A stretch of 63,843 nt of DNA, counting the filler, from Reclinomonas americana ATCC 50394 (Eukaryota): NCBI GenBank assembly GCA_048213135.1. It is 8 parts of 5 records of this genome, joined end to end, with 100 filler letters (N's around TTAATTAATTAA, not from the genome) between each part and the next. Parts side by side here need not be neighbours in the genome. Positions count along the whole stretch, not along the records: positions 18,941 to 40,175 come from PS015576.1; 7 more parts are not named here. One strand, given 5' to 3'. Each line of letters begins with the position of its first letter. Positions within the stretch are counted from its first letter, which is position 1. Of this stretch, positions 766 through 37,335 are shown piece after piece. The notes beneath the pieces are model-generated. The model was not told the DNA's origin. It saw only the letters and a list, made by a program, of their open reading frames with translations, and did no database searches. Position numbers and translations under genes: made by a program.

Positions 766-3544
766 ATGCTCATGCGACGTCTGCGCGTAGGGCACTCGGT
801 TGCTGTCGTGGGTGGTCGGGCCTGGCGTGGTACTGACCTCGGTGCTGGCGCTTGTCAACTTGTACGCGCACGACAATGCATGCATCATGCATGCAAAGAA
901 TGCGCGTGTGTGACTCCTTTATGTGTGCGTGTGACTCTGTGCACAGGACGCAGCGTGGACGCGAGGGTGGCGATGATGCGCCTGTTGCTGCGGCGGTGAG
1001 TGATGATGCAGGCAATGTGACGCGACGTACATCGATCGCCGATGCAGGCGACAGCAGCAGCAGCGATCCGTCGTCGCGCTTGTTGGGCGCACTGGGAGGT
1101 CTGTTGGCATGTCGGCGAAAGCTGTCTGCGATCGCGCTTGTTTTTGGCTCAANNNNNNNNNNNNNNNNNNNNNNNNNNNNNNNNNNNNNNNNNNNNNNNN
1201 NNNNNNNNNNNNNNNNNNNNNNNNNNNNNNNNNNNNNNNNNNNNNNNNNNNNNNNNNNNNNNNNNNNNNNNNNNNNNNNNNNNNNNNNNNNNNNNNNNNN
1301 NNNNNNNNNNNNNNNNNNNNNNNNNNNNNNNNNNNNNNNNNNNNNNNNNNNNNNNNNNNNNNNNNNNNNNNNNNNNNNNNNNNNNNNNNNNNNNNNNNNN
1401 NNNNNNNNNNNNNNNNNNNNNNNNNNNNNNNNNNNNNNNNNNNNNNNNNNNNNNNNNNNNNNNNNNNNNNNNNNNNNNNNNNNNNNNNNNNNNNNNNNNN
1501 NNNNNNNNNNNNNNNNNNNNNNNNNNNNNNNNNNNNNNNNNNNNNNNNNNNNNNNNNNNNNNNNNNNNNNNNNNNNNNNNNNNNNNNNNNNNNNNNNNNN
1601 NNNNNNNNNNNNNNNNNNNNNNNNNNNNNNNNNNNNNNNNNNNNNNNNNNNNNNNNNNNNNNNNNNNNNNNNNNNNNNNNNNNNNNNNNNNNNNNNNNNN
1701 NNNNNNNNNNNNNNNNNNNNNNNNNNNNNNNNNNNNNNNNNNNNNNNNNNNNNNNNNNNNNNNNNNNNNNNNNNNNNNNNNNNNNNNNNNNNNNNNNNNN
1801 NNNNNNNNNNNNNNNNNNNNNNNNNNNNNNNNNNNNNNNNNNNNNNNNNNNNNNNNNNNNNNNNNNNNNNNNNNNNNNNNNNNNNNNNNNNNNNNNNNNN
1901 NNNNNNNNNNNNNNNNNNNNNNNNNNNNNNNNNNNNNNNNNNNNNNNNNNNNNNNNNNNNNNNNNNNNNNNNNNNNNNNNNNNNNNNNNNNNNNNNNNNN
2001 NNNNNNNNNNNNNNNNNNNNNNNNNNNNNNNNNNNNNNNNNNNNNNNNNNNNNNNNNNNNNNNNNNNNNNNNNNNNNGCTGACGAAGGCTGCATGCGTGG
2101 CACGTCAGGCGCGCGATACATCCAGCCACAACCACAACAACAACAACACACCAATGTCGCGATCCAGGTAGCCACCGGGCGGCCGGATACGCTCGACTTG
2201 TGCTTGCGGCATCGATTCTCGCACGAGAACATGCCGCTCAGGGGGTTCTGCCCCCATGCTCNNNNNNNNNNNNNNNNNNNNNNNNNNNNNNNNNNNNNNN
2301 NNNNNNNNNNNNNNNNNNNNNNNNNNNNNNNNNNNNNNNNNNNNNNNNNNNNNNNNNNNNNNNNNNNNNNNNNNNNNNNNNNNNNNNNNNNNNNNNNNNN
2401 NNNNNNNNNNNNNNNNNNNNNNNNNNNNNNNNNNNNNNNNNNNNNNNNNNNNNNNNNNNNNNNNNNNNNNNNNNNNNNNNNNNNNNNNNNNNNNNNNNNN
2501 NNNNNNNNNNNNNNNNNNNNNNNNNNNNNNNNNNNNNNNNNNNNNNNNNNNNNNNNNNNNNNNNNNNNNNNNNNNNNNNNNNNNNNNNNNNNNNNNNNNN
2601 NNNNNNNNNNNNNNNNNNNNNNNNNNNNNNNNNNNNNNNNNNNNNNNNNNNNNNNNNNNNNNNNNNNNNNNNNNNNNNNNNNNNNNNNNNNNNNNNNNNN
2701 NNNNNNNNNNNNNNNNNNNNNNNNNNNNNNNNNNNNNNNNNNNNNNNNNNNNNNNNNNNNNNNNNNNNNNNNNNNNNNNNNNNNNNNNNNNNNNNNNNNN
2801 NNNNNNNNNNNNNNNNNNNNNNNNNNNNNNNNNNNNNNNNNNNNNNNNNNNNNNNNNNNNNNNNNNNNNNNNNNNNNNNNNNNNNNNNNNNNNNNNNNNN
2901 NNNNNNNNNNNNNNNNNNNNNNNACGATCGCCGTTGCCGCCACACCACGTAGTAGCTGTCACGTCGGTCCACCTGCTTCATGCGCTTGAAGCGGCGAAAC
3001 GCGTGCATGAGCGGACTCTCGTACACCGACAGCGGCATGTCGGTCTCCCCNNNNNNNNNNNNNNNNNNNNNNNNNNNNNNNNNNNNNNNNNNNNTTAATT
3101 AATTAANNNNNNNNNNNNNNNNNNNNNNNNNNNNNNNNNNNNNNNNNNNNGGTTGGCGAGAAGACGGCAACCGTCGCAGTTGTCGTCGTCGTCGGGAAGC
3201 AGCTTGCCGGCCACGGCGGCGGCACACGATCGGTGCGAGTGACACCAATGTGACACAAAGCGGATCTGTGTTCTCATGCCCCTCCCTCCTTCCCTCACGA
3301 CAGGTCGTCGTACAAGAGCGTATTGCCGCCAGCGAGATCGACTGCCGGTGAGGATGACGGTGAGGACGACGACAGCGACGACGATGAGCAGGAGGTTTGG
3401 TTGATGTACGGACGCGGACCGGTGTTCATGCCGCACGAGGTGCAGCAGCAGCGATCGGCAGACGGGAGAGCTGTCGATATGCGATGGAGGCCACTGGATA
3501 CGGAGATTGATGACGACGACGACGACGACGGTGGTGTTGGGTGA
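766..3544 (+). CDS. Fragmentary hypothetical protein(s) interrupted by N gaps, with an acidic C-terminus
   Basis: Coding-like segments at ~947-1151, 2078-2261, 2925-3050 and 3304-3544 (...EDDDSDDDEQEVWLMYGRGPVFMPHE...*). No recognisable domain, and the pieces may belong to more than one gene. Confidence 0.3.
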
Positions 3545-10571: not shown

Positions 10572-10725
10572 GTGAGAGTGTGCCCCCCCCCCCCGCCCTC
10601 TCTCTCTCTCTCNNNNNNNNNNNNNNNNNNNNNNNNNNNNNNNNNNNNNNNNNNNNTTAATTAATTAANNNNNNNNNNNNNNNNNNNNNNNNNNNNNNNN
10701 NNNNNNNNNNNNCACACACCCGCAG

Positions 10726-17700: not shown

Positions 17701-19799
17701 NNNNNNNNNNNNNNNNNNNNNNNNNNNNNNNNNNNNNNNNNNNNNNNNNNNNNNNNNNNNNNNNNNNNNNNNNNNNNNNNNNNNNNNNNNNNNNNNNNNN
17801 NNNNNNNNNNNNNNNNNNNNNNNNNNNNNNNNNNNNNNNNNNNNNNNNNNNNNNNNNNNNNNNNNNNNNNNNNNNNNNNNNNNNNNNNNNNNNNNNNNNN
17901 NNNNNNNNNNNNNNNNNNNNNNNNNNNNNNNNNNNNNNNNNNNNNNNNNNNNNNNNNNNNNNNNNNNNNNNNNNNNNNNNNNNNNNNNNNNNNNNNNNNN
18001 NNNNNNNNNNNNNNNNNNNNNNNNNNNNNNNNNNNNNNNNNNNNNNNNNNNNNNNNNNNNNNNNNNNNNNNNNNNNNNNNNNNNNNNNNNNNNNNNNNNN
18101 NNNNNNNNNNNNNNNNNNNNNNNNNNNNNNNNNNNNNNNNNNNNNNNNNNNNNNNNNNNNNNNNNNNNNNNNNNNNNNNNNNNNNNNNNNNNNNNNNNNN
18201 NNNNNNNNNNNNNNNNNNNNNNNNNNNNNNNNNNNNNNNNNNNNNNNNNNNNNNNNNNNNNNNNNNNNNNNNNNNNNNNNNNNNNNNNNNNNNNNNNNNN
18301 NNNNNNNNNNNNNNNNNNNNNNNNNNNNNNNNNNNNNNNNNNNNNNNNNNNNNNNNNNNNNNNNNNNNNNNNNNNNNNNNNNNNNNNNNNNNNNNNNNNN
18401 NNNNNNNNNNNNNNNNNNNNNNNNNNNNNNNNNNNNNNNNNNNNNNNNNNNNNNNNNNNNNNNNNNNNNNNNNNNNNNNNNNNNNNNNNNNNNNNNNNCT
18501 CGTCGAGCTGCAGCAGCGGCCTCTGTGGTGTCCACCAATAAGCTGCTGACCAAGAATACGTTTGCACTGTTGGATGATTCCGATTCGGGTTCGGCCGACG
18601 ACGATGGTGGCGATGTTGGCGGTGACGATGACGAGGAGGAGGAAGAGGGCGATGATGGTGATGAGGATGATGGCGCCGACCGCGGTGGTGCCATNNNNNN
18701 NNNNNNNNNNNNNNCAGCCGCCAACACACCCGGCGCCGGTGCCGGTGCCGGTGCCGCCGCTGACGTGGTGGTGGTCACCGCACCTGTCGGCGACGACACC
18801 TCACGCTCACCCGCCGCCGCAACGCTCGACGACGACGCCTNNNNNNNNNNNNNNNNNNNNNNNNNNNNNNNNNNNNNNNNNNNNTTAATTAATTAANNNN
18901 NNNNNNNNNNNNNNNNNNNNNNNNNNNNNNNNNNNNNNNNGCGACGCGGATCCACCCACCGCCTGCCTCACATTGACGGCCACCATGGGATCCCGATCAC
19001 CGAATTGCTGCTCCCGGAGAAAAAATACATGAGAACAGGGAACAACGCACACACACACATACACACAGACACGCACCGGTGCCGACGGATAATGGACATT
19101 GAAGAGCACCGGGTCTCCGCGCTTGAGGCGCACCTCGGGCGGCACCTTGAGCTCATTCTGCGCGAAAAAGATGCCCTTGTGTCCATCGCCCGTCACTCGC
19201 TCCCAGTCCGGATGGAACAGGAAGCCAAATCCAAGCCCAATGCCCGCATATCGCGACATTAGCGTGCCCGTCTGTTTGTTGTTGTTGTGAGCACGGGCGA
19301 GAGAGAGAGAGAGAGCACAACGAAACGCACACGCGCAAACCATTTCAGCACCCTCGTGAAACACCTCTTTCAGCTTGGCCACGTTGAGCACACGCTTACG
19401 CGGCGCCTGTGCGTTGTTAAACACAACAGTGTGNNNNNNNNNNNNNNNNNNNNNNNNNNNNNNNNNNNNNNNNNNNNNNNNNNNNNNNNNNNNNNNNNNN
19501 NNNNNNNNNNNNNNNNNNNNNNNNNNNNNNNNNNNNNNNNNNNNNNNNNNNNNNNNNNNNNNNNNNNNNNNNNNNNNNNNNNNNNNNNNNNNNNNNNNNN
19601 NNNNNNNNNNNNNNNNNNNNNNNNNNNNNNNNNNNNNNNNNNNNNNNNNNNNNNNNNNNNNNNNNNNNNNNNNNNNNNNNNNNNNNNNNNNNNNNNNNNN
19701 AGTGAGTGAGCGCGTGGGAGAGTGTAAGAATGAGTGTTGCTTTTACAACACCTCTTTGGCGACCGGACCCCAAGGTTTGATGTTGCTCCGTTTCTCCAT
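11727..19799 (-). CDS. Dis3/RNase II (RNB) family protein, predicted pseudonuclease, with two extra N-terminal cold-shock domains
   Basis: Dis3-type CSD1 (ANRAVRGDEVHV) and CSD2 (MVPSDRSLP...IADWPENRKHPRGKL); RNB (RLDLRG...[41 protein letters not shown]). Upstream CSD-like exons GFGFLF...GIFF...GDPVLFNV...AVNV (~18960-19270) and QFGFIV...GIYF...EVRFRI...QAREV (~16750-17130). The start at 19799 and the linkage across N gaps are tentative. Confidence 0.7.
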
Positions 19800-19962: not shown

Positions 19963-22900
19963 ATGCGCGGGGGCGCGGCCTTTGTGTGTCTCCTGCTTGC
20001 CACACTGGCGCTGCTTGCGGCGAGGTCAGTCCACCAGCACGCTCACCAGCACACACACACACTCCACGCACAGACAGCGACAGTGTGTGACGTGTGCGAC
20101 GCCACGTGGGCGATCTAAGAGAGAAAGAAATGAGAAAAAAACGACGCGTGCCACCACTCATTAACACTCACTCATTTGCACAGCAGCAGTGTGGCAGTCG
20201 TTGAAGCCGACAGCGATGCGGTGACTAGCGCAACACAACAACAGCCACCGCCGCCATCATTAGAGAAAGTGGAGCTTTCAGCAGTTATCGACAAGAATGA
20301 TGATCCATCGACAGCATCATCGTCGTCGTCGTCGTCGTCGTTTGATGACGCTGATGCCGATGGGCTGTTGCCATCGGCGCCTTCCTCGTCTGTAACCGAC
20401 GTTGTTGTCGATGTCGTGGAGAGGGGAGAGGAGGAAGAGGAGGAGAAGACCAAGGACGACGGTAATCAGAGTGAACTTGAGGCGGTATGTGTGTGCGTCG
20501 TGCGTCTTGTGTGTCTGAGTGTGTGCTCATTGTCGTCATTGGCGTCGTAGGCGAGTGTGGAGGTGGAGAAAGAAGAGGTCTCTTGTTTGTTTATTGATTC
20601 GGCGTGTGTCTTTTTTTCTTTTGAGTATTGACGACGATTTGTGTAGGTGGTGGTGGTGGGAGGGACCGCTTCCAGCGCAATATGGGCGGTGGTTGATCCC
20701 GAGACGATTGTCATTGGTGGTAGTAGTAGTGGTAGTGGAAATAGTGGTAATGCGAGCGACGGTGGCGACGCTGTGGAGGACGGTGCTCAGGGAACAACAG
20801 CAGCGGAATCCGAACATGGGTCCGAGGGCGGTGGTGCTGCGACGATCGACGAGGCGACTGGTGCGCCCAGTGGTGGAATCTCTACGCCAGTGTGTGTGCC
20901 AGGTGCGCGATTGGCGGTGGTGCGAATGTCGGTTGGACTCTGCGGACTGACGTGGTTTCATTTGGCACAGACACGGACGGAGCGTGTCCGATGACCGACG
21001 CCGAAATCGTGGCCTCGTTGACCGACACAGCTGGCGACGCCGTGACGGCCGCTGGCAGTGCTCTGGGTAGCGCGAATGGAGAAACTCTCGCCGCCGAAAT
21101 TGCGGCGCTTGTCGATGGGGAGAATAATGATGCGGAGGTTGCGGAGGGAGACAGCTCGTGGTTGAAGGAGTCGGCCGCTTCGTCTGCGCCTGTTGCGGAC
21201 GCTTCGGCGGCGACTGCTGCCGCCGCTAGCAATGTCGCCCCAACCGATGCTGCGGCTTCTGCCACCGGCGATGGTGCTCGTGAATCGTCGACGACCGCGG
21301 CCGCGGATGCAGGTGAAGGCGAGCAGAGCGATGCCAGCAGTGGCCCCGGGACACCGGAGGAGATTGACATTGCAAACGACACGCAAGACGGTCCCGGTGC
21401 GCCGAAGCTGTCGGCCGCCGAGATCCCTCTGCCACCCGTGCCGCCAAACGAGAACGAAACTCGGTACGTGGTTTTTTGGGAAGGTTTTGGTGCTCATCTG
21501 CCAACGATGACCACTCATTCTCCACCTCCAGTTTGTTCAACTACGCAGCGTCGTCGGTGGGCGCCAAGGTCCTTCGTGCGAGCGCCGAGACCAAGGTCGG
21601 TTCTCTCTCAGTGATATTGGGGAGTGTCGCTGGCACTGACACACATCGCGCGCAGGGCGCCTCTAAAATCCTCAACGATGACCAAGACCAGTACATGTTG
21701 ACGCCGTGCGATCTGCCGGACAAGCATGTGGACATTGAGTTGTCGGAGGAGGTGATGCCGAGCGATGTGGAGATGGCGAACTTTGAGTACTTTTCGTCCT
21801 CGGTGCGACAGTTTCGCATTCTCGGAAGCCAGCGGTGAGTACTGTGACAGCAGCGCCATGCCAGCCAGCTGATGCTGATTTCGCGCGCGCCGCAGGTATC
21901 CGTGTGATCAAGCACGTGGATGCCAGTGGCACATCCTCGGCACGTTCGAGGCAGAGAATTCGCGCAATGTGCAGCGCTTCTCCGTGCCGCAAGCAACCTC
22001 GATTTGGGCCAGGTTTGTGCGTGTGTGTGTGTGGACATTCTACTTTGCGATCTGTGGCACTCACACGCGCACGCGTAGGTATATCCGACTCCAGTTGCTG
22101 TCACACTACGGCAAGGAGCATTACTGCACGCTGACGACGTTTCGTGTGTACGGCTGGAATCTGATCGAGGATCTCAAGTCCGACATTAGTCAGGATGCCA
22201 CCCAGGCCGAGGTGCAGTGGCGCGCCGTTCGACCATGTTTTCTTTGAATACGTTGCTCATTTCGTATGTGTGTGTAACTGCGCAGCCGTCCATGTCGTCG
22301 GATCTCGATCCCATTATGGATGCCGCTGAGGCTCCGAGCGACATCAAGCGCATCTTGCAGCAGCTGGAGGAACTGCACACCGCGAATAGTGACATGCAGC
22401 ATCTGGAGGGTGTGCTGAAGCTTGCCACGGAGGTTACCGAGGCTGCCCCGGCCGCTGTCGCCGCCTCCACTGCAGTGGAGGAGGCGGAGCCTGTGGAAGA
22501 GGAGGTGGTGTTGCTGTCCACCGTGCCGACTGCCGTCGGTGTCGGAGCGCCTGTCCATGAGATCGCAGTCGTCGCCCCGGCTACTACAGCGACGACAGCC
22601 ACGGCCACGGCCACGGCCACGGCCACCGCTACGGACTCTGCAACAGCCACGCCGACTCCCACTGCTGCCCCTGCTGCTGAAGAGGTGAAGCCAGCGGCGG
22701 CGGAAGCTCCCGCTACTACGGACGCCGCTCCTGCCACACCGACCAGCGACGCACCAGCTTCGACTGACAGCGAGTCGGTGCCGCCGGCGACTGCTGTCGC
22801 TGCTGGAGCGGCACCGACTGTCGCGAAGCAATCAGCAAGTGAGACAACAGCGCCGACTCCCGCGAAGCAACCAGCAAGTGAGACAACAGCGCCGACTTCC

Positions 22901-25252
22901 GCGAAGCAACCAGCAAGTGAGACGACGGTACTGACTGCCGTCAAGCAAGTTGCAAGCGAGACACCGGCGCCGACGGCCACGAAGCAATCTGCAAGTGAGA
23001 CGACGACGACGTCGACTCCTGTCAAGCAATCTGCAAGTGTGGCAAAGGAGGCCGCGTCCGCAGAAACTGCACACGCCGCCGCCGCCGCTGCTGCCGCTGC
23101 TGCTGCTGTTGCCGTCGAAGACGGTGAGACCGCTGCGGAGACGACGACACCAGCCGAGGCTGTCGCGGAGCCAGCGGTGGAGACAGCGACTGTCGCTGCC
23201 GAGAAGTCTACTGCGGACGCACCTGGAGAGTCATCGGCGGCGGCGTCCTCTGCCGTCGAACCAGTTGCTTCAGAAGCCGACAACTCCACTGCAGCGCCTG
23301 TCGCGTCGCCTGCGGCTGATAGCAGCAGTGCGCCATCAGCAGTCGACGACCTGACGGCGGAGGTTGTTGTTGTGCCTCCTTCTAGCATGACGGAGAAGTC
23401 TGCCACTTCCACTGGTCGCCGAAGTGCGGCTGCGGCCGATTCGCCGTCGGCTACTGCTGCCGACGCGCGTGCAGATTCAGCGCCTCCGTCTATCGATGCT
23501 GCTAGCGTGGAGGAGACCCCTGCAGCGGCACCCGAGCTGCCATTGGCGACGGAGACAGTTGAGGCGACGGCACCTGTCGCCGTTCCTTCCGCTGCTCCCG
23601 CTGCCTCGGATTCCGATGCCAGTGAGGAACGCACGGAGGAAAAAGCGACCACCACCACAAGCACCGCCGCTACCGCTGCCGTGGTCGACGAGTCTGCCGC
23701 AGCGGCAAAGTCGGCAAGTGAGGAGGTGCATTCAGCGCAGGAGTCGACGACAACCACAACAGATGCGACTGCATCCTCTGCCGAGGAGCCATCAAGTGCC
23801 GACACGCCGACGGCGGAGTCATCAACTGCTGCGCCGGAGGGTTCTCAAGCTGTGCCGACGGCGAGTGCTGAGACGACGACAAGTGAGTCGCCGGCTACGC
23901 CTGTCGAGGCTCCGCAGGAGGCAACGGTGGCCGCCACGACGACTGCAGCACCTGCAACTCCAGCAGCTGCAGCTCCTGCCGCGTCAGCCACGCCCTCAGC
24001 GCCACCGGCACCGGAGAAGACGGCACAGTCAGCACCTTCATCATCTTCACCGCCGCCACCACCAGTCCCGCAGAGCCATGCGGCCGCCACCAACTCCACG
24101 TTGGTGCATGTGGTGGTGCCGCCGATGTACCACCCCCCCATGGCGGTGGCCGCGAGTGCACTTGGCACTCCACCGGCACTCACGCAAGGCTTGCCGCCGC
24201 TGGCTCGAGTCCTCGCGAAGCCTCCGTCAAGCAAGGACGGCGTGTTCAAGATGCTCACCGCCCGAGGTACGTCCCTTCATGCATCATGCGTTTTATTCTT
24301 GTGTGTCTCACTCCTCCTCCTCCCACAATGCGCAGTCAAGGCGCTGGAGACTCTCAGCGAGCACTACCTCAAGGCGCTGGTCGATCTCAACAAGGTCGTG
24401 CGCAGCTCGAGCCAGGCCAGCGTCGCTCGCGTGGTGGTCGACTTGACGAAGCGCATTCAGTCGCAAGAGAATAAGCTGGACGACCAGAAGCGCAGCCTCT
24501 CCAAGTCACACGATGCACTGAAATACCTTTCCCGCGTCCTGGATGCCTCGGAAGAGCGCTGGAAGCGTCGTGTGGAGGAGCTGCAAGTGCAGCAGCGCGT
24601 GTTTTTCGTGTGGACCATCCTGGCGTGTGTGGTGACGGCCGTGGCCGTCACACTCATCATCATGTTCCTCATGTCGTTTTCGTGGACGTTGCGTTGGTCA
24701 TTCATCACTTGTCTTCTCTTTGCCACATCCTCTCTCTCTCACTCACGCACATGTGTGTTCCATGCGCGCAGTCGCCGCAGGCTGGGTGTACTGACCGACG
24801 TGTCGCCACCGACACCCATCGATCTCGACTGCCTGCCGCCTGGTACGCCAGTGGACCACATTCCACTACCGTCGCCGGGACACCGCAGCGTGATTCCACG
24901 ATCGCCCAGCGCCGCCAGAAGTGCGACTCTCTCTTTTTCTCTCCATCATTTCCCTGCTGCTGACGGCATGTGCACAGTGCTGGCATACGCGCAGGATGAG
25001 TCGGCGAACGACGGCAGCAGTACGGGCGCCACCGACACGGGAACTCCCGCGCCGCTACCCTCCACCCAATTACAAAAGCTGGGTCACATGTCGGAGACCA
25101 CGTCTCCGCAGAACTCGCCGCGCGTTCGCTTCCCCGCATCGCCGGTCAACAACAACACGCTGCTGTCGCAGCTGGCGCAGCGACAAAAGGCTCAATTACT
25201 GACTGCCGGCTACGGCGCCAGTAGGCGGCGGCACAGCATGTCGACTTACTAG
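19963..25252 (+). CDS. Mid-SUN domain ER membrane protein (SLP1/SUCO-like)
   Basis: Signal peptide MRGGAAFVCLLLATLALLAA; SUN domain FNYAASSVGAKVL...KILNDDQDQYMLTPC...IELSEEV...ANFEYFSSSVRQF...YIRLQLLSHYGKEHYCTLTTFRVYG; Ala/Thr/Glu-rich linker; coiled coil; TM segment VFFVWTILACVVTAVAVTLIIMFL. Confidence 0.85.
22820..23040 (+). repeat. Coding 39-bp tandem repeat (KQ[P/S]ASETTAPT[P/S]A), about six copies
   Basis: Units of gcgaagcaaccagcaagtgagacaacagcgccgact are visible in the SUN-protein linker. Confidence 0.85.
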
Positions 25253-26568: not shown

Positions 26569-29500
26569 TCAGAGTTCCAGCGTAAACTGCCCACACGCCT
26601 CCCTCAGTGCGCGCATGACATCCAGCACCTCCTGCGAGGTCGGCCTGTCAGGGCGCATCGTCATGCATCGCATGCCGAGTTCAAACATCGGCTCAGCGAT
26701 GCGTGGCGTCCACTCTGCTCCGCCGTCCACCAGTTCCATGGGGCGTAGTGAGGCGGCACCGGAACGATCCCATGCCACGGACCAATCAACGACGGTAGAG
26801 ACGGGCTTGCCGGTGACCAGCTGCACCAGCACAATACCCGTGCTGTACACGTCGTGCTCTGGGTGCGGGCGACGCATGCGCATCGCCATTGGGTCCATGT
26901 AGTCCAGAGTGCCGGCGGCGGTCGTGGTCTACGAGGAGAGAGAAGGTGAGAATGAGAAAGAGAGAGAAGGAGAAGGACCCCAACACACTTTGCCATCTGC
27001 AATCGACCTCGCAATGCCAAAGTCACCGAGACATGGCTCGAAACGGTGATCGAGGAGCACATTGGAGGGCTTGATGTCGCGATGCACCACATTGTTCTGC
27101 GAGCGGAGGTGAGTGAGGTGAGGGACAAAGCATGAAAACACAACTGAAGGGTATGTGGAGAACGCATAATGCTGTCAGAGACAAAAACAACAATAGAGTG
27201 ACAAGGAGAGTAGAGAGATTATGAGCGCAAGCAGAAAGAGAGCAAGGGTGGAGAATGAGCGAGAATGAGAGAGACAGAGAAAAGAGTGCGGAGGTGGAGA
27301 ACACGAGAGACTGAGAGAAACAACACAAAAAGAGTGACAAGGAGAAAGAAAGAGAAGAGGCACACACAAAGAGCGAGTGTGAGGAGTGACCAAGAGGGAG
27401 AATGAGAGAGAAAAAAGTGCGGAGGTGGAGAACACGAGACTGAGAGAAATGACACAAAAAGAGTGACAAGGAGAGAAGAGAGATAATGAGTGCAGGCAGA
27501 AAGAGCGAGTATGAGGAGTGGGGAAGGACAGCACGAGAAACTGGGAAATACGAGACGAAGTGACAGAGCGAAGAAGAGAAGAGTGGAGAACGCAAAGATA
27601 GAGCAAGGGCGACGGAAAGGGAGAATGGGATGGAGGATTGCATCTACATCGCACAAACCTTGTGCAGGAATGCCACAGCCTCGGCCAGTCCGAGACCAAT
27701 TTGCACACGCTGCACGACCGTGAGTGGTGCACGACCGGCGCGTGGCAGCAGCAACAGATCCTCCAGGTTGGGAACTCTGTGTGCTTTCACAATGAGGTGA
27801 TGATGGATAGAAGGAAGAGAGATGGACACGCACTGCAGGGCCTTGTACACGAGACAGCGTGCCTTGTCGTCGCCCACCGAGTAGCCGACAAGAGGCACAA
27901 TGCGACGATCACGCAGGCGTCCGAGGGTAGCGACCTGTGAGGATGGGGAAGATGGATGAGGGGAGAGAGAAGAAACAGGAGAGAAGGAGAGACACAGACC
28001 TCGCTCTCAAACGACTCCATCGTCCATGGTGCGTCGGGGTCGAGCACCTTGATGGCCACATGCATCTCGCGAAGCAATGCGATGAAGACGGCACCCTGGC
28101 CACCCTCGCCAACCTTGAGGCGTGGGGAGAATGAATTGGTGGCGTGCACGATCTCGGGCCACTCGAAACGCTGCACGGCAGTGTCGACTGTGGACGGCAT
28201 GATGGGAAGTGAGATATTGGTGAGAATGAAGGACGTTGAACATCGATATGAAGAAAGAAAGGGAGAGGCAAACAACAGACCTTGGGCGAGGAGAAGATCC
28301 TGTCGCAGCTGGGAGACGAGTTGATCCTTTTCTTGCAGCTGTGTGGTGAGGTCGTCCTTCTCGCGCAGTGCTGCAGTGAGCTGAGCCTGCAGTTGGCAGT
28401 GAGCTTGCTGCCATTCTGTCACAGTCCGTTGAAGTTGGGAATTCTGCTCCTCCTTCTCGGCCTTGCCTTGCTGCAGCTCCGTGATGGCTTGTCGCAGCTG
28501 GGCATTCCTTTCGAGCTCCTCAACCTTGCTTCGTTCAAACTCTACATTCGCTCGCTGCAGATCGGCGACGACATGTTCGTGCTCTTGCCGCTGCCGCTCC
28601 CACTCCAGCTGCTGCAGCTCTCGCTCCTGCTGTGCTGCTTGAAGATCGCGATGGAGTTGTGCATTGAGTGCATAAACACCGGCGAGCTGGCGTGCCACGG
28701 TGGGAGCATCAGCCGCCTGCACAGCAATAAGATACGGCGTGAGCGGGCGAAAGCGACAAGGAATGAACGCAGGAGTGACAAGGACACTTGAAGATTACTC
28801 GTCGTCGCACCTGGCGTGCTGGCGGTGCGTCTGTGAAGGGATAACAAGGCGGAAAGTGAACGCGAGGAGTATGAAGAACACATCGTCGTACCCGACAAAA
28901 TATCACACCTGCTGGCGGAGGAGATCGCATCTGTTGTTGTTGTTGTTGTTGACGGGGTAGTGGAGGCCGCGCCGCGAGGCGGTCAAGCAACTCGGCTACC
29001 TGCTGCTTTCTCGCGTCCCGTGCCATTTGCGCTGCTGTCTTGCCCAGCTTGTTGACCATCGGCACAAGATCGGGACAACGAGTGGTGAGGAGTCGCACAA
29101 CGGCTTTGTGGCCTCCCCAGGCAGCATAGTGCAGTGCAGTGGACTGCGAATTGATGGCGCGGTCATTGGAGACCGCCCGCACCATCTCCGGCGGACATCG
29201 TCGCTCATCTGCCAGCAACCACTCCACCACGTGAAGATACCCATAGGTGGCAGCCGCCGTCAGTGGCGAGTAGCCACCGTCGTCGACCATTTGTGCGAGT
29301 CGTGGCCCGACGCCACTCTCCTCCCACAAATACTCCAACACAGAGAGACGACCTTGTGCAGCGGCCCAGAGAAATGCCGAGCCGCCCTCATACATCTCCT
29401 CTCTCTCCAGCAGAGAGTGTGCGCCCTCACGCGCCACCAACTCGCACAGTGCTTTCACATTGCCCTCCATTGCTAAAACCCACGCTTTCTTCCGAAGAGC

Positions 29501-29589
29501 ACTGCCACCAAAGAGGCAAAAGCAGAAGCGCGAGTGAGAGTGAGAAACAGAGAGTGAATGCCAACTGACATAATCACCGCACACCTCAT
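26569..29589 (-). CDS. Ankyrin array copy 1: ANK repeats - coiled coil - RLK/Pelle (IRAK-like) protein kinase
   Basis: 5-nt first exon ATGAG, ANK exon, Q/E-rich coiled coil, then kinase FEWPEIVHATNSFSPRLKVGEGGQGAVF...VAIK...HRDIKPSNVLLD...DFGIAR...GTLDYMDP...DVYSTGIVLVQLVTGK...DRPT. Confidence 0.9.
27200..27600. repeat. Intronic ~130-bp degenerate tandem repeat (about three copies)
   Basis: gtgcggaggtggagaacacgaga...actgagagaaa...acacaaaaagagtgacaaggag recurs inside a kinase intron. Confidence 0.7.
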
Positions 29590-30085
29590 TTTCTTTGATC
29601 CCGAGACTGGAGGGAAATAACAGTAACGCTCTCTCTCTCCCTCTCTCACACACACGAACACACTGTGCCGTCTCTTTGCACACTCAGCTTCGTCTTCGTC
29701 TTTTTTCCGAGCGTCCTGCTCCACGACGGACAGTGATTGCATAGTGGCGACGTTGTGTGTCGCAACTCGCGAGTGGAGTCTGGAACAGCTTCATCGCATG
29801 ATACACACAATCAAGCTATGATGGCAAACTTGGGGGTTGGTGATACGTTCAAGTCGGCAGCACGCAATCAAGATATCGATCCGCTTCGCAGTGCGCGTCA
29901 AACAAACAAAACACTTCATTCACCACATTCCAATAATGCGATAAAAGCCCACAAATCCCTTGCCGACAATGACCTATTAAATGCATCCACCGCTGCATCT
30001 CTTGGCCGTGTCAGTCCTTCCGCAATTCCTTGAATCATTTCACATACGTTCGCCTCAACGCTTCCGCGAATTGTCGGACTTGGGC

Positions 30086-31222
30086 TTACTCCTTCTCATG
30101 CAGCTGCGCCACAAGATCGTCCCTGTCACGCAAGGCAGCAGTCAATTGAGCCTGCAGTTGACCATGAGCTCGCTGCCACTCCGCGTTGGCTTGCTGAAGC
30201 TGGGCAACGACGTCCTCGTATTCCCTACGTTGTCGATCCCACTCCCGTTGCTGCTGTTCTCGCTCCTGCAGTGCGGCGGCAAGATCGCGCTGGAGTTGAG
30301 CAAGGAGTGCGTCCTTCTCGGCCAGTTGGCGTGCCATTGCCGACTCATCGATAACCGCCTGTACAGAAGGCAAATGTGACACGAGAGTGCGAGGGAAACA
30401 TGAAACGCACGCGAAAACGAGTAGGAACATAAGCAGATGCAGAATGGCTCTCTCCGTCTCACCTGTCGCGCCAGCTCTGCATGTTCCGCAACGTCACACC
30501 AAGACACACATGGCGGAGTGTAAGCAACAACAGAGTGAATCACACAACGCGCTAACAGAAAGATGAGACAGCACCTGAAGGTGCAGGAGTCTGTGGCTGT
30601 TGCGCAGCGAGGCGATCAAGCAACTCGGCCACTTGCTGCTTGCCCTTGTCACGTGCCGCCTCAGCCGCTGTCTTGCCCGCCTTGTCGACCATCGGAACGA
30701 GGTTGGGAAAGCGAGTGGCGAGGAGGCGCACAATGTCTTCGTGGCCTTGCCGAGCAGCCTCATGCAGCGCAGTGGACTGTGGAGTCACAGCACCATCATT
30801 GGAGACCGCCCGCACCATCTCCGCCGGACATCGTCGCTCATCTGCGAGCAGCCACTCCACTGCGCAAAGACGCCCACAGTAGGCAGCCGTCATTAGCGGA
30901 GTCCAACCATAGTCGTCAACCTGCAGTGCGAGTTGTGGTCCCACGCCACTCTCCTCCCACAAGTACTCCAACACGGGAACGTGGTCCTCTTGAGCGGCAC
31001 AGAGATACGCAGAGCAGCCGGCATCAAGCATCTCCGCTCTCTTCAGCAGAGTGTGTGCGCCCTCACGCGCCACCAACTCGCGCAGTGCCTCCACGTCGCC
31101 ATCAATTGCCATCTCCCATGCTTTCCTCAGACGAAAACTGTCGCACAAAGAGGCAAAAGCAGAAGCGCGAGTGAGAGTGAGAGAAAGAGAATGCCACCTG
31201 ACAGCATCACAGCATACCTCAT
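30086..31222 (-). CDS. Ankyrin array copy 2: ANK repeats - short coiled coil, no catalytic domain
   Basis: Same exon layout as copy 1 (ATGAG exon, ANK exon, 14-nt micro-exon ELARQ, coiled-coil exon), ending ...LVAQLHEKE* at 30086. Confidence 0.75.
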
Positions 31223-31728
31223 TTTCTTCAATCTCGAGGCGGAAGAGAAACGACACCAACTCTCTCTCTCTCTCTTTCACACACTGCGCCTTCCCTTCAC
31301 ACACGCTCTGCCGTTTCGATCGCCGTTTCCCCGACTGTTGTTGCGAGCGTCCTGGACGGACGACGTCGCGCTTGCATCGCTCGGTTGTCATAAAAAAAAA
31401 ACACTTCATTTACCACATTCCGATAATGCGACAAACGCCGACAAATCCCTTGCCGACAATGACCTTGGCACACCAACAATATATAAACACATTGTACTTC
31501 TCCAACAGTCATCTAGATCTTCCCTTTCAGGAGGCAAAGCCAAAAAAACGCATACTATATATATATGCATCCCCGCCTTCTCCAAACAAAACACTTCATT
31601 CACTTTGTGAATGAAACCCACTGCACATTCACTGCTCATCTGTGCGAGAGAAAACACAAACGTGGAGTGTGAACACGCACGCACAACGTGGCAGCAGTTG
31701 ACGAGAGAGTGCACACCTGCAGTTGTTC

Positions 31729-32360
31729 CTATTGCTCCTCGGCAAGTCGATCGAGCAACTCGGCCACTTTGTTCTCGTCACTCTCGCGTGCCAGCTGCGC
31801 CGCCGTCTTGCCTTTTTTGTTGACCATGGGAATGAGGTCGGGAAATCGAGTGGCGAGGAGTCGCACAATGGCTTTGCGGCCCATCTTTGCAGCATAATGC
31901 ATTGCGGTGGACTGCTTAGACGAAGCACGGTCATTGGTGACCGCCCGCACCATCTCCGGCGAACATCGTCGCTCATCGGCAAGCAACCACTCCACGACTT
32001 GCAGACGGTCTCCGGAAGCAGCGGCCATCAGTGGCGTCCATCCTTCGCCGTTGAGCAGTTGTGCGAGTTGAGGTCCGACGCCGCTCTCCTCCCACAAGTA
32101 CTCCAACACTGGCAAATGGCCCCGCCAACAGGCACGGAGAAATGCCGAGCTGCCATGCCTATCAATCTCCTCTCTCATAAGCAGAGTCTCGGCGCCCTCA
32201 TACGCCACCAACTCGCGCAGTGCCGCCACATCGCCCTCATCCGCCATCTCCCATGCTCGCTTCCGAGGGTCACTGCCACCAAAGAGGCAAACGCAGAAGC
32301 GCGAGTGAGAGTGAGAAACAGAGAGTGAACGCCAACTGACATAATCACAGCACACCTCAT
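31729..32360 (-). CDS. Ankyrin array copy 3: ANK-only (premature TAG; possible decoy or pseudogene)
   Basis: The ANK exon is intact, but a TAG at 31729-31731 lies four codons before the conserved cag|gt donor, and no coiled-coil exon follows. Confidence 0.7.
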
Positions 32361-32742
32361 TTTCTTTGATCCCGAGGCGGAAGGGAAACGACACCAACTC
32401 TCTCTCTCACACACACACACGAACACACTGCACCGTCTCTTAGCCTTCGTCTTCGTCTTTTTTCCGAGTGTCCTGATTCATGACGGACAGTGATTGTGTG
32501 CGACGTCGTGTTCTCGACTGATCTGTGGAGTCTGAAATGCTTCATCACACGGTACGCAGTCAACTTTTGCTTCCTGACATGCTCTTGCGAAGAGGCGACA
32601 GAGTTTTGTTGCGATACCACGCGTAAGAGATCAGTGCACTTCGAGAAGGCGATCAACTCTCTTGTTAACATATTCCAAGGCTGCCTGCAATGCAGTGCAC
32701 TCATCACGTGACTTCCTGTGGCTCATTTCACTTGCTTTCACC

Positions 32743-32830
32743 TCACAGTTCCAACGTAAACTGCCCACACGCCTCGTGCAGGGCGCATGGTCCTGCAGCG
32801 CATGCCGAGCTTGACATGGGTTCGGCGACT
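32743..32830 (-). pseudogene. Relic of the RLK/Pelle kinase C-terminus
   Basis: Reads VAEPM../KLGMRCRTMRP../HEACGQFTLEL*, matching copy 1 IAEPMFELGMRCMTMRP...REACGQFTLEL* (26569-26700) with a frameshift and a deletion. Confidence 0.85.
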
Positions 32831-32856
32831 AATCCACACCGGCGGTCCAGCTCGCA

Positions 32857-35800
32857 CTATGACGACCCAGCCACCGCTCCTACTCCTCCTTGCACTGGCG
32901 TCGCCTCACACAATCGCCTCAGCTCGTCGAGCACGTATATTGCCGACACGCGAGTTGCTTGAGGCCTCTGCACCACACGCAATCAATGAACAATCCTCCA
33001 TTCCCTTGCACCCCATCTGTCTCCCATGCGCAACCCAGCACTGCCGAATCAGACTGCGAATGTCCTCTGGCACGGCTGCCCGCACTTCATCGTCGTCCAG
33101 GTCGCCCGGCAAAACGCCGTCATGCATTCGACGCATGATGGCTGGTAGCGCCACTCCACTGAATGGCTCGCGGCGAGTTGCAATTAACCAAAGCAGGGAA
33201 CCGAGTCCATAAACATCCGCTCTTTCATCATACTGCGAGTGGTCAAAGGAGTGAGTCCACCTATTTTGAGAGGGACCGAGAGAAGGCTAATCACTCACCT
33301 GCTGTTCCAACATGGCCTCTGGCGCAGCATACGCCGCTGTTCCGTGATTCGACTGCATCTTGCCGAGAGTGCCGTGAATCTTGGCCTCCCCAAAGTCACA
33401 CACCTTGGCCACGAGTCGATCCTCGCTGATGAGAATGTCTGCGGACATTTAGGGAGGAGGTAAGGGGAGAGGGCGAAATGCAATCGGGGAATGAGAGCGG
33501 ATAAAGAAGCTTGATTGACAACGAAGAGACTCTTCCTGCCCCGCTGAGTCACTCTCGTCGTCATCACAGAAAACGACAGCGGGAAAAGCTCGCCGAATAA
33601 GTCGAAGGGAATATCCACCTTCTTCGCTTGACGGAATCTGAGTTATCTCTCTCGCTCACTCACATCACTTTCTCTCCATCTTCAGTCACCCTCCGTGACA
33701 CGCAACTCTGCGGCTTGAGATCCCGATGCACCACTCGACGAGAGTGCATGTACACCACCGCCGATGCCACTTGCAAGAGCAGGCTGAGCAGATGCTGTGT
33801 CGTCGTGCGCTCATCCTTCACCAGGTCGTGCAGCGTCTCGGCGTTTCCTTCCTCGCCTTCTTGACCGACATACTCGAGAACGAGAGCGAGGCCGTTACGG
33901 TCGTCGTCGCAAACGGCCACCAGTTTCACAATGTGCGGATGGCTGTGCGCGCAGGTACATGAGTGACGGTGATGAGCATTCAAGTGAGATTACGAAGAAT
34001 GCACGCAACTCGAGCTGCATAAGCAGTGAATGTTCGTTCTCGAAGCAATCTCGAATGCGCCTCCAGTCCACTGACTGCGAAACGCGTGCTTGCTGCCTGA
34101 CAAAGTAGCGCTTGTACGCCACGGTCTGCGAGTTGCCACCGAGTCGGAGAGTGGCGTGGAAGACGGCATTCTGGGCTGAAGTATAGACATATATCAGACG
34201 AGCCTAGACTACTGCCAACAAAAGCGAAACCCTCACCAATGGCGAGCTGTCTTGTCGATAGTTCGAGTTCCGAGAAAGGCACAACAGGCGCACGAATGGC
34301 GAATCTCGCTGCTCTCTCCGTCACCAACTCGGCCGTCACGTTGATACGACACACATCTGTGCACGAGGAGAATGAGATGAGAGAACGAAGAAATCAATGG
34401 CAAGTGCAGTCGCAACTCTCGTATGCTTGAAATAGCAGACGAATGCTCTCGTGCGATCCATCGGGGAACAGCGTGTGGAGCGAATCACGCACCAGCCGCA
34501 TGACGCTCACGTACTCTGCGTCCTCGAGTGCAGATAGACGGGCCAGGTGAGACACGCGATGGCGCACATCCCTCAAGCTCTCCACGGCTCGAATCTACGA
34601 ATGAAAAAATCAAGTGAGAACACAATAGCACGCAGACATGTGCACAACATGAAAAAAGAAAGCACGAACAAGGAGAGCAGAAACGCAGAGTGTAGGACTC
34701 CTCATCCTCCGTCCTCCTTCTTTCGTTCCCCTCTAATGCTGCCCTCCCTCCTTCACTCCTCTGTCTTCTTGTGCTCTCCCCTCCTTCCCTCACACCTTGG
34801 CGTCGTCAGCAAGCAAGCGCACTGCCAGTCGATCTTCGTTTGTGACGGGATCCAGACGAATGCCACTCTTCAGCAGATCCTCATCCCGACAGGCAGCACG
34901 AGGAATAAATGTGATATACAACAGCAGAGTGCTCAGCAGTGACACATCCATGCCCGTGGTCACTCCACTCCCCTTGAATGTGCGAATGGCTTCGCGGTTG
35001 GAAGGGAACAACTCGACGGAGCGCATGCGAATGTTGCCGCGCTTGTCCAGCGTCATTCGGCAGTATCTGTGAGGCAGAATGAGTGGAGATGGCAACAGCG
35101 CAGCTTGACGACATGTCGAGCACCTTGGTGGTGGAGATGGCAGGCAGAGTTGCTCAATGTCGAATTCGCCAGGGAAGAAGTCAGTGACGAGTTGGTGCAG
35201 GAGGGAGCCGAGAGCCAGTGGAATGATTTCGTGCACGACTTCGGTGAGCATCAAGATTGGACGACGGTCACTGTGCATGCAAGAGAGAAGTGAGAAAGAA
35301 GGTCGTGCACACGAGGCAAAGAAGCTGTCCAATAGGAACCTGAGAAAGTCCATGTGGAAGAGGGCGCGCAGCTGGCATTCCATCTCATCCACCCTCCGTC
35401 GGAGCTGATCGCGTTCTTTGGCAAGATTGGCAAGCTGCGCACGAAGAGCATTCCTCTCGACAGTGGTGACGTTTGCGACACGCTCAGCGTCAGTGAGAGC
35501 TTGTTGGAGCTGACTGCGACCGGCCGTGAGCGACTCAACAACAGCTTGGGTGGTAGCCAGTTCTTCGGTGCGCGAATGATATTCGGCAGAGATGGCCGCG
35601 ACGGTGGCTTGAGATGCGGCAAAGTACTCGGCGAGTTGGTCACGCTCCGCAGTGACATTCGCTGTGGAACCGTAAAGTGAGGAACGAAAGACGGATCACG
35701 AGCACACAACAAAATCAGCCTGGCGAAACGAACCGAGGGTACGATCTTTCTCAGCCAGCTGGGTGGAGAGTCGATCCCTCTCGGACTGCAACTGGGCATT

Positions 35801-36870
35801 CTTCTGCTGCTCTTCGGCGTTGGCTCGCTGCAGCTGAGCGACAATGTCCTCGTGCTTTCGTCGCTGCCGGTCCCACTCCCGCTGTTGCTGCTCCCGCTCC
35901 TGTTGTGCTGCGGCAAGGTCGTGTTGGAGTTGGGCGAGGAGTGCGTCCTTGTCGGCGAGCTGGCGTGCGACGGTGGGATCATCATCAACCGACTGCAATT
36001 TACGAGAGTGCGAGGGAGACACGGAACGGATGTGAGAAGTGAGTTTCACGAGCAACAAGAAGCAGAGAGTGGCACTCTCCGTCTCACCTGGCGTGCTGGC
36101 ACTGCATCATATTCGCCAGAAACGACACACAAGGACAAACACAGGCGTGGAGCGTGAGCACGAACACAATATGCCAATAGACATAGAGGTCATACCTGCA
36201 GGAGGCGGGGATCGCGGCTGCTGTTGTTGTTGTCGGCGTGGTGGTGCTGGTTGCGCAGCAAGGCGATCGAGCAAGTCGGCCACTTTTGGATTGTAGGTGT
36301 CGCGTGCCCACTGAGCCGCCGTGTTGCCCTCCTTGTTGACCATGGGAATGAGGTCGGGAAAGCGAGTGGCGAGGAGTCGCACAACGGCTTCGTGGCCATA
36401 TGCGGCAGCCCAATGCAGTGCAGTGGACTGTGGATATTCGGCACTGTCATTGGTGACCGCCTGCACCATCTCCGGCGGACATCGTCGCTCATCGGCAAGC
36501 AACCACTCCACCACTTGCAGATGCCCTCCGCCGGCGGCCACCATCAGCGGCGTCCAGCCATAGAAGTCGACCATTTGTGCGAGTTGTGGCCCGACACCAC
36601 TCTCCTCCCACAAATACTCCAACACAGAGAGATGGCCTTTGTAAGCGGCACAGTAAAATGCCGACTGGCGACGATCATCCATCTCCTCTCTCTTCAGCAG
36701 AGAGTGTGCGCCCTCACGCGCCACCAACTCGCGCAGTGCATTCACATCGCCATCCAGCGCCATCTCGAATGCTTTCTTGCGACGAGCACTGCCACCAAAG
36801 AGGCAAAAGCAGATGCGCGAGTGAGAGTGAGCGAGAGAATGCAACCTGACAACATCACAGCGCACCTCAT
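32857..36870 (-). CDS. Ankyrin array copy 4: ANK repeats - long coiled coil - putative HEPN RNase domain - TKL-like protein kinase
   Basis: ANK and coiled-coil exons are paralogous to copies 1-2. A helical domain follows with MDVSLLSTLL and IRAVESLRDVRHRVSHL, then a kinase VAYK...HPHIVKL...HRDLKPQNILI...KVCDFG...GTAAYAAPE...ADVYGLGSLLWLIATRREPF...CW. The exons join in frame with GT-AG introns. Confidence 0.8.
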
Positions 36871-37335
36871 TTTCTTTGAGAGAAAACAACAGCGTGCTCT
36901 CTCTCTCTCGCACACACACTCTCCTTCACACACACACGCCCTCTCTGCCTCGCGCACTGCCTTGATCTGCTTGCCTTTTTTTCTGCGTGTCCTCTTGCTT
37001 GGCGGACAGTGATTGCAATGCGATGTCGGAATTCTCTTGCCACGATTGCACGACAGATCCATGAACTTCTGCAACGCTCCACCACATGTACTGTCTTCCT
37101 TCGCCACTGCTGCTTTACAGCGCGAAGTCGCACCCATTTTCCTCATCACTTCTGCTCTGCTTCTCCTCCCTCCCCCTTTCCCCTTCCTCCCCCCTCTCCC
37201 CCTTCCCTCACCACCACCAATCGATTATACTTGAACAATAAAAAACAAACAAAAAACAACACTCCCATCTACGCACACTCTCCTCTCCCCCAACCCACCC
37301 CCACCCGAGCATGCACAAACACCCATCCCTCCTCC

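Follow-up and report, generated by a model that had tools for sequence, protein, structure and literature searches.

Four ankyrin (ANK) open reading frames (ORFs), named here genes 1 to 4, lie on the minus strand at 28.7-36.8 kb of a 63,843-nucleotide stretch of DNA (the window), joined from 8 parts of 5 records of the Reclinomonas americana ATCC 50394 genome (assembly GCA_048213135.1). We propose, with a probability of roughly 0.55, that these ANK segments serve as N-terminal heads for recognition in tandemly duplicated soluble signalling genes of this intron-rich protist. The heads combine a nearly constant frame with a variable concave face, and diversifying selection on that face is probable. 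An earlier note on this DNA had described four paralogous ankyrin receptors resembling a natural repertoire of designed ankyrin repeat proteins (DARPins). The four ORFs are indeed related, but they are not self-contained receptors: each forms the first large exon of a gene with several exons, two of them being heads of genes that encode ANK repeats, a coiled coil and a kinase, and two of them truncated duplicates.

Four ankyrin heads with a constant frame

The genes of the window are interrupted by short introns, and the ANK ORFs were located as follows.

29470-28709, minus strand: ANK ORF of gene 1
31112-30552, minus strand: ANK ORF of gene 2
32247-31729, minus strand: ANK ORF of gene 3
36763-36107, minus strand: ANK ORF of gene 4

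All four proteins score above the Pfam gathering cut-offs, with 56-73 bits for Ank_2 (PF12796; cut-off 27.3) and 46-63 bits for Ank (PF00023; cut-off 21.1). Amino acid identity among them is 66-72% (70-72% for the core of each against gene 4) and DNA identity 73-79%. The heads align over 169 columns with one single-residue gap, the repeat count is equal in the four copies, and tblastn found no fifth ANK copy in the window. As laid out in gene 1, the ANK exon encodes an N-cap, three repeats, a C-cap-like repeat and a Q/P-rich tail, with a TPLH motif that is degenerate in repeats 1 and 4. The conserved segments listed in the earlier note (VLEYLWEESGVGP, VEWLLADERRC.EMV.AV.ND and VA[E/D]LLDRLA) are present in our alignment as given there, and its variable strings read exactly as quoted.

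The fold was modelled for gene 4. The AlphaFold2 model of residues 1-172 (pLDDT 92.9, pTM 0.89) has a helix pair per repeat, and the long loops that follow repeats 1 and 2 each contain one more short helix. Foldseek against the PDB ranked N3C DARPins and designed ANK proteins highest (E ~1e-8); TM-scores to N3C DARPins were 0.69-0.78 when normalised by query length and reached 0.85 when normalised by target length.

Variable residues on the predicted binding face

The repeat register was anchored on the T/S of the TPLH motif and then compared with HMMER alignments to DARPin chains; in these, positions 1-16 of repeats 1-4 are occupied by the same residues, which confirms the register. The binding face was defined a priori in three ways. 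The first definition is the set of positions randomised in DARPins, which we take, after Binz et al., to be 2, 3, 5, 13, 14 and 33, in agreement with the DARPin chains in the HMMER alignment. The second is the ANK-N5C library set (positions 2, 3, 5, 10, 13 and 33; PMC4308713), and the third is the surface table of Utges et al. (PMC8415598), in which positions 1-5, 10, 13 and 14 are concave once expressed in DARPin numbering.

Under all three definitions, variation is concentrated in the beta-turn and helix-1 residues of the concave binding face, as had been proposed from the sequence alone. Among the DARPin positions, 20 of 24 columns are variable, compared with 57 of 145 elsewhere (Fisher p = 9e-5), and adding position 10 gives 24 of 28 against 53 of 141 (Fisher p = 2e-6). 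The earlier note had made its reading depend on clustering at the concave face, and this clustering was found: by the surfaces of PMC8415598, 27 of 32 concave columns are variable, followed by 16 of 36 convex, 6 of 22 basal, 9 of 36 core and 19 of 43 other columns, a mapping that derives from register and secondary structure and not from measured solvent exposure. As a control, we considered framework positions 12, 16, 22, 25, 26 and 30, usually variable among ANK repeats (PMC4308713); just 5 of their 23 columns are variable here. Position 33 is nearly invariant in the four copies.

A search for proteins of similar length returned 13 matches, of which only one is close (P0001; the others are at most 39% identical). 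P0001 is a 154-residue EukProt entry derived from expressed sequence tags (ESTs), labelled Reclinomonas americana (jakobid) and 76% identical to gene 4; because of its EST origin, at least one family member is transcribed in the organism of that label. Compared with each copy, P0001 is identical at 4-10 of 20-21 binding positions and at 88-97 of 111-113 positions elsewhere. A search for longer proteins gave no close relative among the 120 matches listed, and none of these carries a Pkinase Pfam domain. In metagenome contigs, the patterns [SP]VLEYLWE and [VA]VEWLLAD produced 248 pattern matches and 0 relatives. No published description of the family was found in the literature searched, which left out most subscription journals and supplements.

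Probable diversifying selection on the concave face

Over the whole gene, Nei-Gojobori estimates of the ratio of nonsynonymous (dN) to synonymous (dS) divergence are 0.44-0.67, with dS of 0.32-0.52. Columns with invariant amino acids have dS of 0.30-0.56, which indicates that the frame is kept by purifying selection and not by homogenisation, and on this ground gene conversion was ruled out as the cause of the identical scaffold.

Codon likelihoods were calculated with our own GY94-type program for four taxa and 169 codons. A model with a single dN/dS ratio (omega) gave 0.61, with ((1,2),(3,4)) as the best tree. With shared branch lengths, omega was 2.6 at the 24 DARPin positions and 0.43 at the rest, and omega = 1 was rejected for the former (2dlnL = 22.0, p = 3e-6). 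Model M2a was preferred over M1a (2dlnL = 48.7, p = 3e-11), placing 17.5% of sites at omega 6.3, and it was still favoured when gamma variation in the synonymous rate was allowed (2dlnL = 15.7, p = 4e-4). With two trees for the exon, omega at the DARPin positions was 2.7 (p = 1e-6) and the comparison of M2a with M1a gave 2dlnL = 49.8. A posterior > 0.9 was reached at 20 sites; 13 of them belong to the DARPin set, and the number rises to 15 if position 10 is included in it.

The estimates of omega by surface were as follows.

Concave: 2.77
Convex: 0.52
Basal: 0.19
Core: 0.22
Other: 0.41

With a synonymous rate shared among classes, omega = 1 was rejected for the concave class (2dlnL = 28.6, p = 9e-8; profile 95% confidence interval ~1.9-4.1), and the concave estimate stayed within 2.6-3.0 across the F1x4, F3x4 and F61 codon frequencies. 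All 22 of 22 null datasets simulated with concave omega = 1 gave 2dlnL <= 3.6 and an estimated omega <= 1.42. Under standard models, the variable sites thus have dN/dS above 1, as the earlier note had required of its reading (concave omega 2.8, p = 9e-8; M2a, p = 3e-11), and together with the concave clustering this partly supports the inference of diversifying selection on recognition; once the concave class has a synonymous rate of its own, omega is not significantly above 1 (omega 1.7, p = 0.13).

It is important to weigh this last result together with the other observations that speak against diversifying selection. With its own synonymous rate, the concave class has omega 1.71, from which omega = 1 is not rejected, and the DARPin sets have 1.4-1.6, with p ranging from 0.13 to 0.40 across the binding classes. 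Within the binding codons, the Nei-Gojobori dN is 0.74 and dS 0.75, a ratio of ~1.0. Among replaced binding-codon pairs, 82 of 118 differ at 2-3 bases, and single-step codon models perform poorly with such changes. The likelihoods come from our own program and not from PAML or HyPhy, and the dataset consists of four sequences only, all of them paralogues and mosaic. The introns offer little help as a neutral yardstick: the divergence of intron 1b (K = 0.18 to 0.54) leaves it undecided, and intron 1a says nothing in this respect because its identity between copies (63-71%) is to be read against the 62% that our own aligner gives for shuffled introns.

These observations lead to the main alternative, a complete lack of constraint, in which duplication would have left the concave face redundant or functionless, free to drift at omega ~1, while the rest is kept for folding or docking. 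The omega values of 1.4-1.7, not significantly above 1, and the Nei-Gojobori ratio agree with such drift, and with binding codons near saturation (dN ~0.74), four sequences provide low power. Several results are difficult to reconcile with it. The shared-rate models reject omega = 1 (p = 3e-6 to 9e-8), and the additional rate parameter that removes significance is itself unsupported for the concave class (2dlnL = 2.1); the dS of small position classes ranges from 0.23 to 0.75. M2a remains favoured even with variable synonymous rates. Drift does not predict the excess of Trp and Tyr, which account for 18 of 111 residues at binding positions, fourfold the compositional expectation of 4.3%, and for 18 of 562 elsewhere, in counts that are not phylogenetically independent across paralogues and weigh less for that reason. 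Enrichment in Trp and Tyr is typical of binding surfaces. Furthermore, constraint in human ANK domains is weaker on the basal and convex surfaces (PMC8415598), and these copies strongly conserve both (omega 0.19 and 0.52). We consider pure drift unlikely, and diversifying selection on the binding face probable.

Gene models and downstream domains

Downstream domains were sought by three-frame reading past each ANK ORF and by Pfam scans of the pieces, and splice models were inferred from conservation between copies and the reading frame. The resulting models, all on the minus strand, are listed below.

29585-29589, minus strand: gene 1, proposed mini-exon ATGAG, followed by a conserved 83-nt intron at 29502-29584
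28909-29501, minus strand: gene 1, ANK exon (Pfam, alignment), donor after PPPA
28811-28830, minus strand: gene 1, proposed 20-nt microexon
26572-28716, minus strand: gene 1, downstream exons with a coiled coil and then a putative RLK/Pelle/IRAK-like kinase, ending in ..ACGQFTLEL*
31218-31222, minus strand: gene 2, proposed mini-exon, followed by an intron at 31138-31217
30575-31137, minus strand: gene 2, ANK exon (Pfam, alignment)
30086-30476, minus strand: gene 2, coiled-coil exon down to the stop at 30086-30088, preceded by intron 30359-30462 and the proposed microexon 30463-30476
31729-32360, minus strand: gene 3, ANK exon 32272-31729, preceded by the proposed mini-exon 32356-32360 and intron 32273-32355
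36196-36870, minus strand: gene 4, 5' part with proposed mini-exon 36866-36870, intron 36789-36865 and ANK exon 36788-36196
32909-36101, minus strand: gene 4, downstream part with proposed microexon 36088-36101, coiled coil from 35992 to ~35390, helical region ~35390-34793 and kinase 34393-32909

The proposed 5-nt first exon, ATGAG, is defined by an upstream ATG, a GT donor and an AG acceptor that are conserved in all four copies. The first introns of genes 1-4 measure 83, 80, 83 and 77 nt, yet the mini-exon is in frame in every copy, and in the spliced model it adds about ten residues (MSxxRKKAWE) ahead of the ANK head. We also considered the conserved ATG as the start of an upstream ORF and rejected this, because indels shift the frame between copies and the splice model is in frame in four of four. 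The ANK and coiled-coil exons of genes 1, 2 and 4 appear to be joined by a microexon of 14-20 nt (..ARQ) with AG/GT flanks and introns of ~80-100 nt on both sides. The spliced models are continuous, with 284 amino acids in gene 2 and 182 in gene 3, and those of genes 1 and 4 open into kinases. Gene 4 has a longer coiled coil than gene 1, and its helical region (34793-35390) has no Pfam family match. An arrangement of the protocadherin kind, with variable first exons spliced to one constant region, would be unproductive for gene 3, where an in-frame TAG precedes the conserved donor (31716) by 15 nt; for gene 2 it is possible.

In gene 1, Pfam Pkinase matches two exons (26932-27174 and 26572-26928), and the motifs GEGGQG, VAIK, HRDIKPSN and DFG can be read from the exons, so that the predicted protein carries the catalytic motifs of an active kinase. 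The best PDB matches of the N-lobe exon are CERK1, IRAK1 and LYK3, nearly all of its matches being receptor-like kinases (RLKs) or IRAK kinases, and the 7 of 7 PDB matches of the C-lobe exon are BIK1, a leucine-rich repeat (LRR) receptor kinase or IRAK4. On the other side, the first matches of the catalytic-loop exon are MKK7 and MEK1, and the placement of the kinase in the RLK/Pelle/IRAK group, drawn from the PDB matches of two of three exons, is tentative. Gene 4 encodes a different Ser/Thr type, with HRDLKPQ and DFG, for which CDK6, Snf1 and MARK are the best matches.

A separate observation concerns 32741-32905 on the minus strand, between genes 4 and 3, where the remnant of a gene-1-type kinase C terminus can be read in two frames (..MRCRTMRP.. 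and ..ACGQFTLEL*). The remnant adjoins the 3' end of the unrelated gene 4 kinase and appears to be the trace of a lost or replaced kinase tail.

Mosaic copies and conserved upstream regions

The four copies are mosaics of one another: segments have been exchanged, and the array has been repeatedly reshuffled. Parsimony-informative sites divide 14, 8 and 12 among the three possible topologies, with the N-terminal third favouring (1,4)(2,3). Fitting two trees with a break near codon 70, where repeats 1 and 2 meet, improves lnL by 17.9, from -1698.2 to -1680.3. One tree for the whole exon was therefore rejected in favour of two, and the selection tests were redone with unchanged results.

Across the array (28960-32560 and 35800-37020), the groupings shift from gene 1 with gene 3 in the distal upstream region to (1,4)(2,3) in codons 1-70 and (1,2)(3,4) in codons 71-169. 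Intron 1b is 84% identical between genes 2 and 4. The 180 nt upstream of the main ATG diverge by K = 0.13-0.24 between copies and are thus more conserved than synonymous sites (dS 0.3-0.5), which suggests that the first intron contains a functional element or that gene conversion has acted locally.

Proposed function of the heads

The gene plan would consist of a tiny 5' exon, an ANK head of N3C-DARPin size, a microexon and a coiled coil, followed by a kinase in the two complete genes. In our reading, purifying selection maintains the core, the long loops between repeats and the basal and convex faces, and the concave beta-turn and helix-1 face would be replaced faster than silent sites. In the mechanism that we consider most likely, every head would recognise its own protein ligand through the concave face; the coiled coil would pair the molecules, and ligand binding may switch or relocate the kinase. 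The truncated copies could act as competitors, regulators or sequence donors. A further step would regard the array as part of a germline DARPin-like repertoire of many heads in a jakobid-like protist, shaped by positive selection on the concave face and by cassette exchange in which truncated copies would donate sequence to complete genes. Wired through the coiled coil to IRAK/RLK-type and other kinases, it would serve an immunity-like function or the sensing of prey, symbionts or viruses, and would have arisen independently of NOD-like receptors (NLRs), LRR receptors and antibodies in a lineage distant from animals, plants and fungi. We hold this extension to be doubtful.

The heads might instead have become specialised without any arms race. 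Under such subfunctionalisation, each duplication would have been followed by a brief adaptive burst towards endogenous partners, such as kinase substrates or scaffolds, and the proteins would now be stable adaptors. ANK-kinase fusions are ordinary adaptor modules (ILK, RIPK4, TNNI3K, DAPK), the different kinases of the two complete genes suggest different pathways, and the data examined contain no link between these genes and infection or non-self. Nevertheless, the same pattern is repeated in P0001, an EST-derived fifth member, and segment exchange together with constrained truncated copies resembles repertoires that evolve by birth and death. With four sequences, episodic and continuing selection are indistinguishable. 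We regard this explanation too as improbable.

Regarding the truncated copies, gene 2 ends after the first coiled-coil exon and comprises ANK repeats and a coiled coil, and gene 3 has ANK repeats only. The homology of gene 2 to genes 1 and 4 ends at its stop, after which the gene 1 upstream region begins. Since genes 2 and 3 each run straight into the upstream region of the next gene, they are truncated duplication units. Lineage-specific synonymous and nonsynonymous changes in non-binding codons number 8:6 in gene 2 and 7:8 in gene 3, compared with 5:5 and 2:4 in the complete genes (small counts in all cases), and ~1:3 would be expected without constraint. From these codon counts, the truncated copies seem to be still under scaffold constraint and do not look decayed. 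The notion that genes 2 and 3 are dead fragments of unequal crossing-over, with the repertoire being partly genomic debris, draws on their truncation at duplication-unit borders, the gene 3 TAG before the donor and the kinase remnant between genes 4 and 3, but we judge it the least likely of the alternatives in view of ANK ORFs intact over ~170 codons at dS 0.3-0.5, the above change ratios, small as the counts are, and the conservation of the 5' mini-exon, intron signals and reading frame.

Other features of the window

The remainder of the window yielded the following observations.

44429-46135, minus strand: ORF piece with a match to the middle luminal domain of NPC1 (Pfam PF22314, E = 1.8e-10); it probably belongs to a gene for a sterol transporter of the Niemann-Pick C1 type
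22190-25252, plus strand: stop-free frame of 1020 codons with no Pfam match
38200-39600, 41100-41900, 45600-45950, 57400-57900 and 60500-60850: diverged tandem or dispersed repeats with a strong strand-compositional skew
3051-3150, 10613-10712, 18841-18940, 40176-40275, 41621-41720, 57505-57604 and 62741-62840: in each, two runs of exactly 44 N around 12 bases

Most of the other long ORFs of the window are also without a Pfam match. According to self-blastn, the repeat blocks are related to each other across the window. In total there are 26 N runs with 6376 N, and the pattern of 44 N and 12 bases looks like masking or scaffolding, not biology.

Comparison with known systems

Hypervariable repeat sensors built on LRR, WD40, TPR and ANK scaffolds occur in plants, animals and fungi. 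The same ANK-scaffold signature is found here in an intron-rich protist, coupled to kinases instead of a NOD module. Among described systems, the fungal NLRs come nearest. In Podospora anserina, NLR ANK repeats have positively selected, polymorphic sites on the concave surface (Dyrka et al. 2014; PMC4986451), the variable sites lying in inner helices and beta-hairpin loops and recombination adding diversity; internal repeats of fungal ANK-type NLRs are at least 85% identical and polymorphic in number. The fungal proteins share with ours an ANK sensor domain joined to a signalling module, concave variation and recombination. Unlike them, the output here is a kinase behind a coiled coil, and diversity lies between tandem paralogues instead of shuffled, near-identical repeats. 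No NACHT or NB-ARC NTPase was found in Pfam scans of the gene-body ORF pieces, which matched only coiled-coil-type and kinase families, and the repeats within each protein are 15-35% identical (26 canonical positions). The family is not an NLR family because no NTPase domain was found, the repeats differ to this extent and their number is fixed in the four copies.

The anatomy of the family resembles that of a natural DARPin library, with binding predicted. N3C DARPins and ANK-N5C (PMC4308713) share with these heads the size, the fold and a fixed frame with variability at positions 2, 3, 5, 10, 13 and 14, the sites chosen for randomisation in the designed proteins. Unlike DARPins, this is a natural family whose binding is predicted only, with long, conserved stretches inserted behind helix 2 in repeats 1 and 2, an almost invariant position 33, degenerate TPLH motifs in repeats 1 and 4, and a head tethered to a coiled coil and a kinase. 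If the heads are ligand sensors, the DARPin solution of a fixed frame and a variable face also exists in nature, on a kinase chassis. They would then offer a tractable system, with 170-residue heads of predicted high stability, to find out what a free-living flagellate must recognise.

RLK/IRAK-type kinases are used in plant and animal innate immunity. The N- and C-lobe exons of gene 1 and its active-site motifs resemble RLK/Pelle/IRAK kinases (CERK1, LYK3 and BIK1 in plants, IRAK1 and IRAK4 in animals). Unlike these, gene 1 begins with an ANK head and continues with a coiled coil where they have a receptor part, death domain or U-box, and gene 4 has another kinase type; no transmembrane receptor part, death domain or U-box was found in the gene 1 pieces scanned with Pfam.

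ANK repeats and a kinase fold also occur together in one soluble polypeptide in ILK, RIPK4/ANKK1, TNNI3K, DAPK1 and RNase L. RNase L combines an ANK sensor with a pseudokinase and an RNase, and ligand sensing by its ANK domain drives dimerisation. Because such proteins exist, the ANK-kinase architecture alone is not new. To our knowledge, all of them are conserved single genes without a hypervariable face, unlike the heads described here, which stand in tandem, evolve fast and bear interchangeable kinase tails. Among hypervariable repeat sensors, this family stands apart by combining, in one tandem array, an ANK face that evolves fast, kinase tails that can be exchanged and truncated copies that are still constrained.

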